A stretch of 64,000 bases of DNA from Escherichia coli (GTDB lineage Bacteria; Pseudomonadota; Gammaproteobacteria; Enterobacterales; Enterobacteriaceae), in the NCBI RefSeq assembly GCF_003334815.1, contig NZ_QOWO01000005.1. One strand, given 5' to 3'. Under the pieces are notes generated by a model, which was not told the DNA's origin, ran no database searches, and saw only the letters and a program-made list of their open reading frames with translations. The translations under genes were made by a program, and so were the position numbers. Of the stretch, positions 40,665 to 45,704 are shown piece by piece. How positions within the stretch are numbered: position 1 is the stretch's first letter; every line of letters starts with the position of its first letter.

Positions 40665-43817
<3,153 letters not shown>

Positions 43818-43836
43818 TACAACGTGTAATCACTAA

Positions 43837-43858
43837 GGCCGCGTAAGCGGCCTTTTTT
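43837..43858 (+). terminator. acrB intrinsic terminator
   Basis: ggccgc-gtaa-gcggcc then tttttt (43853-43858), 20 nt after acrB stop. Confidence 0.85.
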
Positions 43859-44362
43859 ATGCATAACCTACGAACATTAAGGAGTAATTGAACCACCAAC
43901 TCAGGATCTCATACGAAAACCAGTATTAACCACGGATAAAATTCATAAAAAATACTGATTGTTAGTTAATTTATATTAAGTAGCGCTAATAGATTTAATA
44001 ATCCATAATCATTTAGAGGCTATTCTTAATTATTTGCGGTAATTCTTTATTCATTCCTCGGTTATTACGTCATATTCAGAGCAATCCTGGTATTAGTGTC
44101 ACCAATTTCATCTGGCGATAATCCTGAAATGTTATGAATAGTTCGAGCAAACTGCTTTTACCTGCTGCGGGTTAGTGCTAGTATGAAAAAGTGAGTCCTG
44201 TCCCGCTTCCTTCCTAATTGTAATTTTTCGTAATAATGCGATGAAAACCTGCAAAGAGTGGCTTATAGTTAAGCTAACAAACGAGAGGGCAAGTCCAGGT
44301 CAGTAAGTTTTTTCCATCCCGAAAGGTGTCCGTTAGTTCAACCGCTAAGAAGGGGACGCGTT

Positions 44363-44737
44363 ATGGATGAATACTCACCCAAAAGACATGATATCGCACA
44401 GCTTAAGTTTCTCTGTGAAACCCTGTATCATGACTGCCTTGCAAACCTTGAAGAAAGCAATCATGGCTGGGTAAACGACCCAACCTCGGCGATCAACCTC
44501 CAGTTGAATGAACTGATTGAGCATATTGCGACCTTCGCACTTAATTACAAAATTAAGTATAATGAAGACAATAAGCTCATTGAGCAGATCGACGAATATC
44601 TGGATGACACCTTTATGTTGTTCAGTAGTTATGGTATTAATATGCAGGATCTTCAGAAATGGCGGAAGTCAGGTAATCGACTATTCCGTTGTTTTGTCAA
44701 TGCGACGAAAGAGAATCCTGCGAGTTTATCTTGTTAG
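44363..44737 (+). CDS. tomB: Hha toxicity modulator TomB (124 aa)
   Basis: ORF track 124 aa [25 protein letters not shown]... Confidence 0.93.
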
Positions 44738-44762
44738 AATTATTACAACCATAGGTAGAAGT

Positions 44763-44981
44763 ATGTCCGAAAAACCTTTAACGAAAACCGATTATTTAAT
44801 GCGTTTACGTCGTTGCCAGACAATTGACACGCTGGAGCGTGTTATCGAGAAAAATAAATACGAATTATCAGATAATGAACTGGCGGTATTTTACTCAGCC
44901 GCAGATCACCGCCTCGCCGAATTGACCATGAATAAACTGTACGACAAGATCCCTTCCTCAGTATGGAAATTTATTCGCTAA
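44763..44981 (+). CDS. hha: Haemolysin expression modulator Hha, H-NS co-regulator (72 aa)
   Basis: ATG 44763 inside ORF 44517..44981; [72 protein letters not shown]. Confidence 0.93.
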
Positions 44982-45152
44982 TAAATAATTCGCTTTCGGA
45001 GCTATAACCGGCTGTTTATTAAGAATTTTATACTTTTTCGCCATGAAGACATACCCTATGTGATCTTTATCACACAGATGTAATGGGAACGTTCTCTTCA
45101 CTGACTTTTCGTCTTACTGTGTTGCCGCATTTTCAGCAACCGGAGGTCAGTA

Positions 45153-45704
45153 ATGAGCACAGAAAAAGAAAAGATGATTGCTGGTGAGTTGTATCGCTCG
45201 GCAGATGAGACGTTATCTCGCGATCGCCTGCGCGCTCGTCAGCTTATTCACCGATACAATCATTCCCTGGCGGAAGAGCACACATTACGCCAGCAAATTC
45301 TCGCTGATCTATTCGGTCAGGTGACAGAGGCTTATATTGAGCCAACGTTTCGCTGTGACTATGGCTATAACATTTTTCTCGGTAATAATTTTTTCGCCAA
45401 CTTCGATTGCGTGATGCTTGATGTCTGCCCTATTCGCATCGGTGATAACTGTATGTTGGCACCAGGCGTTCATATCTACACGGCAACACATCCCATCGAC
45501 CCTGTAGCACGTAATAGCGGTGCTGAACTGGGGAAACCCGTCACCATCGGTAATAACGTCTGGATTGGCGGACGCGCGGTCATTAACCCTGGTGTGACCA
45601 TTGGTGATAACGTCGTGGTAGCCTCAGGTGCAGTTGTCACAAAAGATGTCCCGGACAACGTTGTCGTGGGCGGTAATCCAGCCAGAATAATTAAAAAATT
45701 GTAA
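45153..45704 (+). CDS. maa: Maltose O-acetyltransferase, hexapeptide-repeat (183 aa)
   Basis: ORF track 183 aa. Confidence 0.93.

Follow-up and report, generated by a model that had tools for sequence, protein, structure and literature searches.

The 545-bp acrB-tomB intergenic region of Escherichia coli as a probable transcriptional control region of tomB-hha

We suggest that the 545 bp separating acrB from tomB in Escherichia coli K-12 most likely comprise the last part of the acrAB transcription unit and, beyond it, the DNA that controls transcription of the tomB-hha operon. According to this model, transcription of acrB would stop at a conserved intrinsic terminator (43835-43860), and tomB-hha would be transcribed mainly from a sigma-70/sigma-S promoter (P1) with a start at approximately 44276 and a leader of approximately 87 nt. 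The weak -35 hexamer of P1 would be boosted by phosphorylated CpxR bound to the adjoining box in a class-I-type position (approximately -49.5). A weaker promoter (P2, start at approximately 44191) probably adds a leader of approximately 172 nt, and its transcripts would pass through the CpxR box. The DNA of approximately 360 bp between the terminator and the box would act as an upstream regulatory and silencing platform rather than as a transcribed leader. H-NS binds this platform, very likely together with its partner Hha, so that hha expression would be subject to feedback, and the platform would carry further operators, namely a PdhR-like box in E. coli and an RcsB-type palindrome throughout the family. 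The anatomy and conservation of the region, the binding of RNA polymerase, H-NS and sigma-S, and the CpxR dependence and binding in Yersinia are documented here or in the literature; we infer the exact start sites in E. coli, the mode of CpxR action, the Hha feedback and the occupancy of the PdhR-like and RcsB-like sites.

Hha works with H-NS to silence horizontally acquired genes and virulence genes, and is itself modulated by TomB; therefore, the signals that set tomB-hha expression matter for biofilm formation, persistence and virulence. Our analysis locates the promoter, the CpxR box and the leader to the base, and indicates that the 545 bp do not form one very long leader. Because the binding of CpxR, PdhR, H-NS and RNA polymerase here has already been published, the finding itself is ordinary, and the general understanding of such regulatory regions is unchanged by it. 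Three details may be new, namely the palindrome that resembles an RcsB box, the invariance of CCAUCCC in the leader, and the presence of a 117-aa ORF at this position in Yersinia, Serratia and Erwinia. The palindrome, CCAUCCC and a two-promoter arrangement shared with Yersinia provide testable leads.

The window, that is, the whole 64-kb stretch of DNA analyzed, corresponds to the reverse complement of NC_000913.3 461071-525070 and differs from MG1655 by 18 SNPs, none of which lies within 43818-44362. Because the last base of the acrB ORF is 43817 and tomB has its ATG at 44363, the gap spans exactly 43818-44362, or 545 bp (NC_000913.3 480709-481253, reverse strand), and the MG1655 annotation places no feature within it. 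The region was found in 5,424 of 5,426 complete E. coli genomes with 90-100% identity, and the RefSeq E. coli genomes among the matches listed have no annotated feature in the gap except occasional IS elements.

The G+C content of the gap is 0.378, compared with 0.526 for the window, and falls to a minimum of 0.295 at 43900-44099; only 0.7% of the 545-bp segments within the window are equally AT-rich. The gap also ranks first in length among the 49 intergenic regions of the window, the median being 127 bp. An earlier note, made from the sequence, had described a long, AT-rich spacer with A/T tracts typical of curved, H-NS-bound DNA. The first part of this description agrees with our results (545 bp, 37.8% G+C, the longest of 49 intergenic regions). 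The part concerning A/T tracts is not supported: we counted nine tracts of at least 4 nt, compared with 6.8 +/- 2.3 in composition-matched shuffles (p = 0.22), which is no more than expected by chance. Peaks of AA/TT periodicity at 9.5 and 10.5 bp reached only nominal significance among the 11 periods tested, and none of these sequence tests supports intrinsic curvature. The AT-richness is not peculiar to the gap, and the whole of 43675-45224, including tomB and hha, has a G+C content of 0.40 or less.

We also compared the tomB locus among the genomes of 80 Enterobacteriaceae species, in 76 of which the acrB-tomB gap could be measured. In all 76 species, the gap is long (435-559 bp) and AT-rich (0.35-0.40 G+C). 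Conservation across it is patchy: the terminator, the CpxR box with P1 (near-invariant) and the leader are kept. The segment 44215-44272 is almost invariant among species, identity falls sharply upstream of 44215, and a large share of 44095-44215 is poorly conserved. The features of the region are as follows.

43835-43860, plus strand: acrB intrinsic terminator, AAGGCCGC-GTAA-GCGGCCTT followed by a T run (terminator scan)
43862-43933, no strand: Escherichia-only segment of approximately 70 bp, gapped in 88-99% of other species
43938-44003, plus strand: AT-rich block of moderate conservation, with a -10-like hexamer at its end (species alignment)
44076-44089, no strand: RcsB-box-like palindrome, TCAGAGCAATCCTG in E. 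coli and TAGGAATATTCCTA or TAAGAATATTCCTG in the family (conserved pattern)
44092-44106, no strand: PdhR-like box, ATTAGTGTCACCAAT (one-mismatch consensus match)
44157-44184, plus strand: candidate promoter P2, TTTACC, a 16-bp spacer with TG, and TAGTAT (read from the sequence)
44220-44234, plus strand: CpxR-type box GTAAT-N5-GTAAT, GTAATTTTTCGTAAT (consensus match and conservation)
44241-44269, plus strand: promoter P1, -35 ATGAAA (44241-44246), a 17-bp spacer, and -10 TATAGT (44264-44269) (promoter scan)
44276-44362, plus strand: predicted tomB 5' leader of approximately 87 nt (P1 start prediction and species conservation)

The terminator scan identified an 8-bp stem at 43835-43854 with the T run next to it, and this terminator, which the earlier note had mentioned, is conserved across the 76 species aligned. 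In C. amalonaticus, it reads GGTCGC...GCGACC, a paired double change that preserves the stem. We tested the adjacent Escherichia-only segment (43862-43933) as a Rho-loading (rut) site on the basis of its C/G ratio. This ratio (1.58) corresponds to only the 90th percentile of the window; because it is so unremarkable, the segment is unconvincing as a Rho-loading site. In the block that follows, the hexamer at 43997-44002 is AATAAT in E. coli and TATAAT in most genera. Another block, CTAAC..AATGAAT..TAAGG (approximately 44126-44145 and homologous positions), is kept in most Enterobacteriaceae and has been lost in E. coli K-12.

In the promoter scan, P1 (ATGAAA-17-TATAGT) matched nine of the 12 positions of sigma-70-type hexamers, and its -10 hexamer and spacing are invariant across the 76 Enterobacteriaceae species. 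Transcription is predicted to start at A44276 or A44277, for a tomB leader of 86-87 nt. A genomic SELEX study of RpoD gives the same hexamers for the constitutive promoter that it assigns to tomB-hha (Shimada 2014). A published sigma-S ChIP-seq peak (479920-480115 in U00096.2) corresponds to 44180-44375 of the window; it covers P1 and is centred on the predicted start. The conversion of U00096.2 coordinates to the window was verified with a published 17-mer, which was found at the expected position.

An IS1 element was observed between the -35 and -10 hexamers of P1 in E. coli FAM21845, a strain from raw-milk cheese (locus L084). It is flanked by the target duplication AGAGTGGCT (44255-44263 in the window), and separates the CpxR box and the -35 hexamer from the -10 hexamer of the tomB promoter. 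An IS1-family element is also found in the acrB-tomB gap of at least one other genome (H20).

In the CpxR-type box, two repeats in direct orientation are spaced 10 bp apart, and eight of the 10 specified consensus positions are matched. The box begins 56 bp upstream of the predicted P1 start, and its centre lies at approximately -49.5 relative to that start. The sequence TTGTAATTTTTCGTAAT at this box is nearly invariant across the 76 species. Matches to the CpxR consensus with two mismatches are common in the window (58 versus 42 expected). Since such matches are abundant, the case for CpxR is carried by the conservation and position of the box. The CpxR-activated promoters of cpxP and degP have tandem GTAAA-N5-GTAAA boxes. 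The tomB promoter resembles them in that its direct repeat has 10-bp spacing and lies just upstream of a weak -35 hexamer, and in that the operon is listed in the CpxR regulon. However, both of its repeats are GTAAT and not GTAAA, and tomB is missing from the direct CpxR targets identified in E. coli by a ChIP-exo study. Both tomB and hha are recorded as CpxR targets in RegulonDB, and the CpxR iModulon includes tomB. The only perfect GTAAA-N5-GTAAA match in the window, GTAAAAGTCCGTAAA, is found on the minus strand at 13587-13601, in the divergent intergenic region of copA and glsA, approximately 100 bp upstream of the copA start.

The orthologous operon of Yersinia, ymoBA, offers a direct comparison. 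In Y. pseudotuberculosis, phosphorylated CpxR binds the ymoBA promoter, as reported from EMSA and reporter data. The published CpxR motif is at -162 relative to the ymoB ATG, which places it 56 bp upstream of TSS2; the mapped starts are TSS2 at -106 and TSS1 at -188. In the Yersinia DNA, we found GTAAGATTAAGTAAT at -162, which is the published motif position, a TATATT ending 7 nt before -106 and a TATAAT ending 7-8 nt before -188. The distance from box to start is 56 bp in both organisms, the E. coli start being predicted, and the distance from box to -10 hexamer is 29 bp in both. The agreement of both distances with Yersinia provides the strongest support available for the predicted P1 start. 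In addition, both regions have a second start, predicted in E. coli, approximately 80 nt upstream of the first, and their -10 hexamers occupy equivalent positions. The two regions differ in their surroundings: the Yersinia region measures only approximately 158 bp and is bordered by a 117-aa ORF, the stop codon of which overlaps with the CpxR box, whereas E. coli does not have this gene and instead has acrB upstream, with approximately 360 bp of AT-rich DNA between.

The candidate P2 is located at the position equivalent to Yersinia TSS1. The distance from the end of its -10 hexamer (44179-44184) to the CpxR box is 36 bp; for the TATAAT of Yersinia TSS1, the corresponding distance is 34 bp. 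The predicted start at approximately 44191 would give a leader of approximately 172 nt. TGnTAnAAT is found at the equivalent site in Citrobacter and Salmonella diarizonae, but not in Enterobacter or Klebsiella; 20 of the 77 sequences have an extended -10 there, versus 12 expected. The P2 -10 is conserved only in the E. coli/Citrobacter/Salmonella group. The leader of approximately 172 nt is plausible because P2 matches the position of Yersinia TSS1 and because of the extended -10 in Citrobacter and S. diarizonae.

With regard to the DNA upstream of these promoters, the high-affinity nucleation motif of H-NS is tCGwTwAATT. Only three matches with two mismatches occur in the 545 bp, and the window is likewise not enriched. 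Like other AT-rich spacers bound by H-NS and Hha upstream of silenced genes, the gap has a low G+C content, lies within an AT-rich island of 1.5 kb, is marked as H-NS-binding and overlaps an RNA polymerase site. The genomic SELEX study cited above (Shimada 2014) reported that the acrB-tomB spacer binds RpoD holoenzyme and marked it as containing H-NS sites, in agreement with the H-NS binding that had been proposed from the sequence. The gap differs from such spacers in that its operon itself encodes an H-NS partner, and in that neither an excess of A-tracts nor the nucleation motif was found.

Boxes for RcsB and RcsAB have the consensus TaAGaatatTCctA. Of 77 sequences, 73 carry the RcsB-like palindrome at the corresponding site, compared with 15 expected from shuffles. 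The pattern, TN(G/A)GA-N4-TC(T/C)NA, is often a perfect palindrome, and the E. coli copy is degenerate, lacking the final A. The likeness to known boxes rests on the family consensus, TAGGAATATTCCTA or TAAGAATATTCCTG, and on the relaxed pattern, which also picks out a site at 36-49 bp upstream of rprA and another between bdm and osmC. On the other hand, the copy in the gap lies approximately 190-220 bp upstream of the promoter, which is atypical for such a site, and is degenerate in E. coli. We found no report of Rcs control of tomB-hha in the open-access literature that we searched.

The PdhR-like box ATTAGTGTCACCAAT is the only match with one mismatch or less to the PdhR consensus ATTGGTNNNACCAAT in the 64-kb window. 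The form of the consensus scanned was ATTGGT-N3-ACCAAT, and the box at 44092-44106 is intact only in E. coli. The tomB-hha operon is a reported target of PdhR. The PdhR gSELEX peak was placed inside acrB, at approximately 43525, some 570 bp from the PdhR-like box, and the motif chosen by the authors (8/14) corresponds to 43347-43363 of the window (Anzai 2020). Taken together, the conserved promoter with its CpxR-type box and RegulonDB listing, the sigma-S ChIP-seq peak at 44180-44375, the window's best match to the PdhR consensus and the conserved RcsB-like palindrome support the complex control of tomB-hha that had been suggested previously.

The predicted leader contains CCAUCCC (44314-44320) and the Shine-Dalgarno sequence AAGGGGA (44350-44356). 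Its length is 81-101 nt in 73 species, among which CCAUCCC is near-invariant, the ribosome-binding site is also conserved and the rest of the leader is variable. In most genera, CCAUCCC is predicted to pair with the Shine-Dalgarno sequence; in Escherichia, its predicted partner is the start codon. We considered an anti-Shine-Dalgarno hairpin and rejected it: although the two elements can pair, no covariation was found, and masking is the same as in shuffled leaders. Specifically, the E. coli leader folds no better than its shuffles (z = -0.15), RNAalifold of the 73 leaders gave only a 4-bp UCCC/GGGG pairing that never varies and shows no covariation, and the accessibility of the ribosome-binding site in 20 species was 0.37, versus 0.375 in shuffled leaders, so that there is no excess masking. 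Thus, the invariance of CCAUCCC is explained neither by covariation nor by masking of the ribosome-binding site.

We considered three alternative explanations for the gap. One is that control of tomB-hha is mainly post-transcriptional, with CCAUCCC masking the ribosome-binding site or binding a small RNA or protein, combined with early Rho-dependent termination in tomB. The near-invariance of this element in an otherwise variable leader, and its capacity to pair with GGGGAUG at the Shine-Dalgarno sequence or AUGGA at the start codon, are consistent with this idea. In addition, a strong Term-seq 3' end has been reported 72 nt into tomB (NC_000913.3 480636, minus strand; 44435 in the window) and marked as lying in a Rho termination region, with a Rho-score peak of 2.08 assigned to 481133 (43938 in the window) (Adams et al. 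2021); this 3' end hints at premature termination early in tomB. However, the Rho scores are coarse and cannot be assigned to the leader, because they were computed from 800-nt windows, and the folding, covariation and accessibility tests described above gave no sign of such a layer. We therefore regard it as unlikely to be the main one. A second explanation is that tomB-hha is transcribed from a distal promoter with the hexamer at 43997-44002, giving a regulatory 5' UTR of approximately 350 nt. That a TATAAT-like hexamer is kept there in most genera, with patchily conserved blocks downstream of it, might favour this explanation. However, the sequence offers no usable -35 hexamer, and the sigma-S ChIP-seq peak ends at 44180. 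In Salmonella, three promoters were predicted in the 1 kb upstream of tomB, and only the fragment proximal to the ATG drove GFP; the hexamer is probably the 'p622' of that study (by position, as the paper gives no coordinates), which was inactive in the GFP fusions. An Rfam scan of 43300-45300 at permissive E-values gave no match beyond a chance-level one on the terminator (best E at least 1.5), and conserved RNA structure was not found. Such a distal promoter is therefore very unlikely, and an extended 5' UTR, as suggested in the earlier note, is not supported for the full 545 bp: the conserved promoter gives approximately 87 nt and the possible second promoter approximately 172 nt, the only starts mapped in the Yersinia orthologue are at -106 and -188, and the upstream 360 bp follow a strong terminator and carry no RNA-level signal. 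The third explanation, that an overlooked gene for a small RNA or a small protein lies in the gap, might be prompted by its unusual length and by several ORFs of 20-40 codons within it. However, no such gene is annotated in MG1655 or, IS elements aside, in the RefSeq E. coli genomes listed, Rfam gave no match, and no Term-seq 3' ends lie within the gap (Adams et al. 2021). We also searched both strands of the gap for small ORFs conserved across species and found none; no frame stays open across species, and the ORF clusters merely mirror conserved promoter DNA. This makes a hidden gene extremely improbable.

A further alternative concerns the origin of the AT-rich DNA. In Yersinia, Serratia and Erwinia, a conserved uncharacterised ORF of 117 aa lies directly upstream of tomB/ymoB, where E. 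coli has acrB (loci L088-L096, e.g. L088:989-1342). This ORF ends in GAA TTG TAA, codons that overlap the CpxR box, and Yersinia TSS1, the distal ymoB start, falls inside its 3' end. No NCBIfam match was found for the 117-aa protein and no Pfam hit is recorded for it; a homologue search found it only in Serratia and Yersinia. The Enterobacteriaceae retain AATTGTAA at the junction of the 117-aa ORF and the CpxR box, and the distance of approximately 360 bp from terminator to box is close to the 354 bp of the 117-aa gene. Because the junction is kept and the gap matches the gene in length, the AT-rich DNA may have replaced this gene. The DNA between the terminator and the box could then be an evolutionary relic, that is, the site of the ancestral gene, now a mostly neutral spacer that is AT-rich by decay and carries a few secondary operators. 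The narrow distribution of the protein family and the poor conservation of much of 44095-44215 would fit this explanation. However, tblastn, a profile HMM against six-frame translations and nhmmer detected no coding remnant in the gap, only the promoter being alignable, and no intermediate state of gene loss was found in the more divergent Enterobacteriaceae. Several blocks of the gap are also conserved well above background, which argues for function and against a neutral relic. We thus give the relic explanation only a small chance of being correct, and we prefer the reading of this DNA as an upstream regulatory and silencing platform for P1 and P2. Within that reading, we tentatively raise the possibility of inputs that have gone unrecognised, in which Rcs envelope stress acting through the RcsB-type palindrome, and a post-transcriptional factor acting at CCAUCCC and possibly linked to the Rho 3' end in tomB, would set the dose of Hha, with the platform itself deriving from loss of the 117-aa gene.

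Finally, we observed in several assemblies predicted proteins of 185-205 aa (P0005, P0008, P0010, P0026, P0039 and others) that contain both a TomB domain (PF10757) and an Hha domain (PF05321). These look like products of read-through or fused tomB-hha genes, or else like artefacts of sequencing or gene calling.
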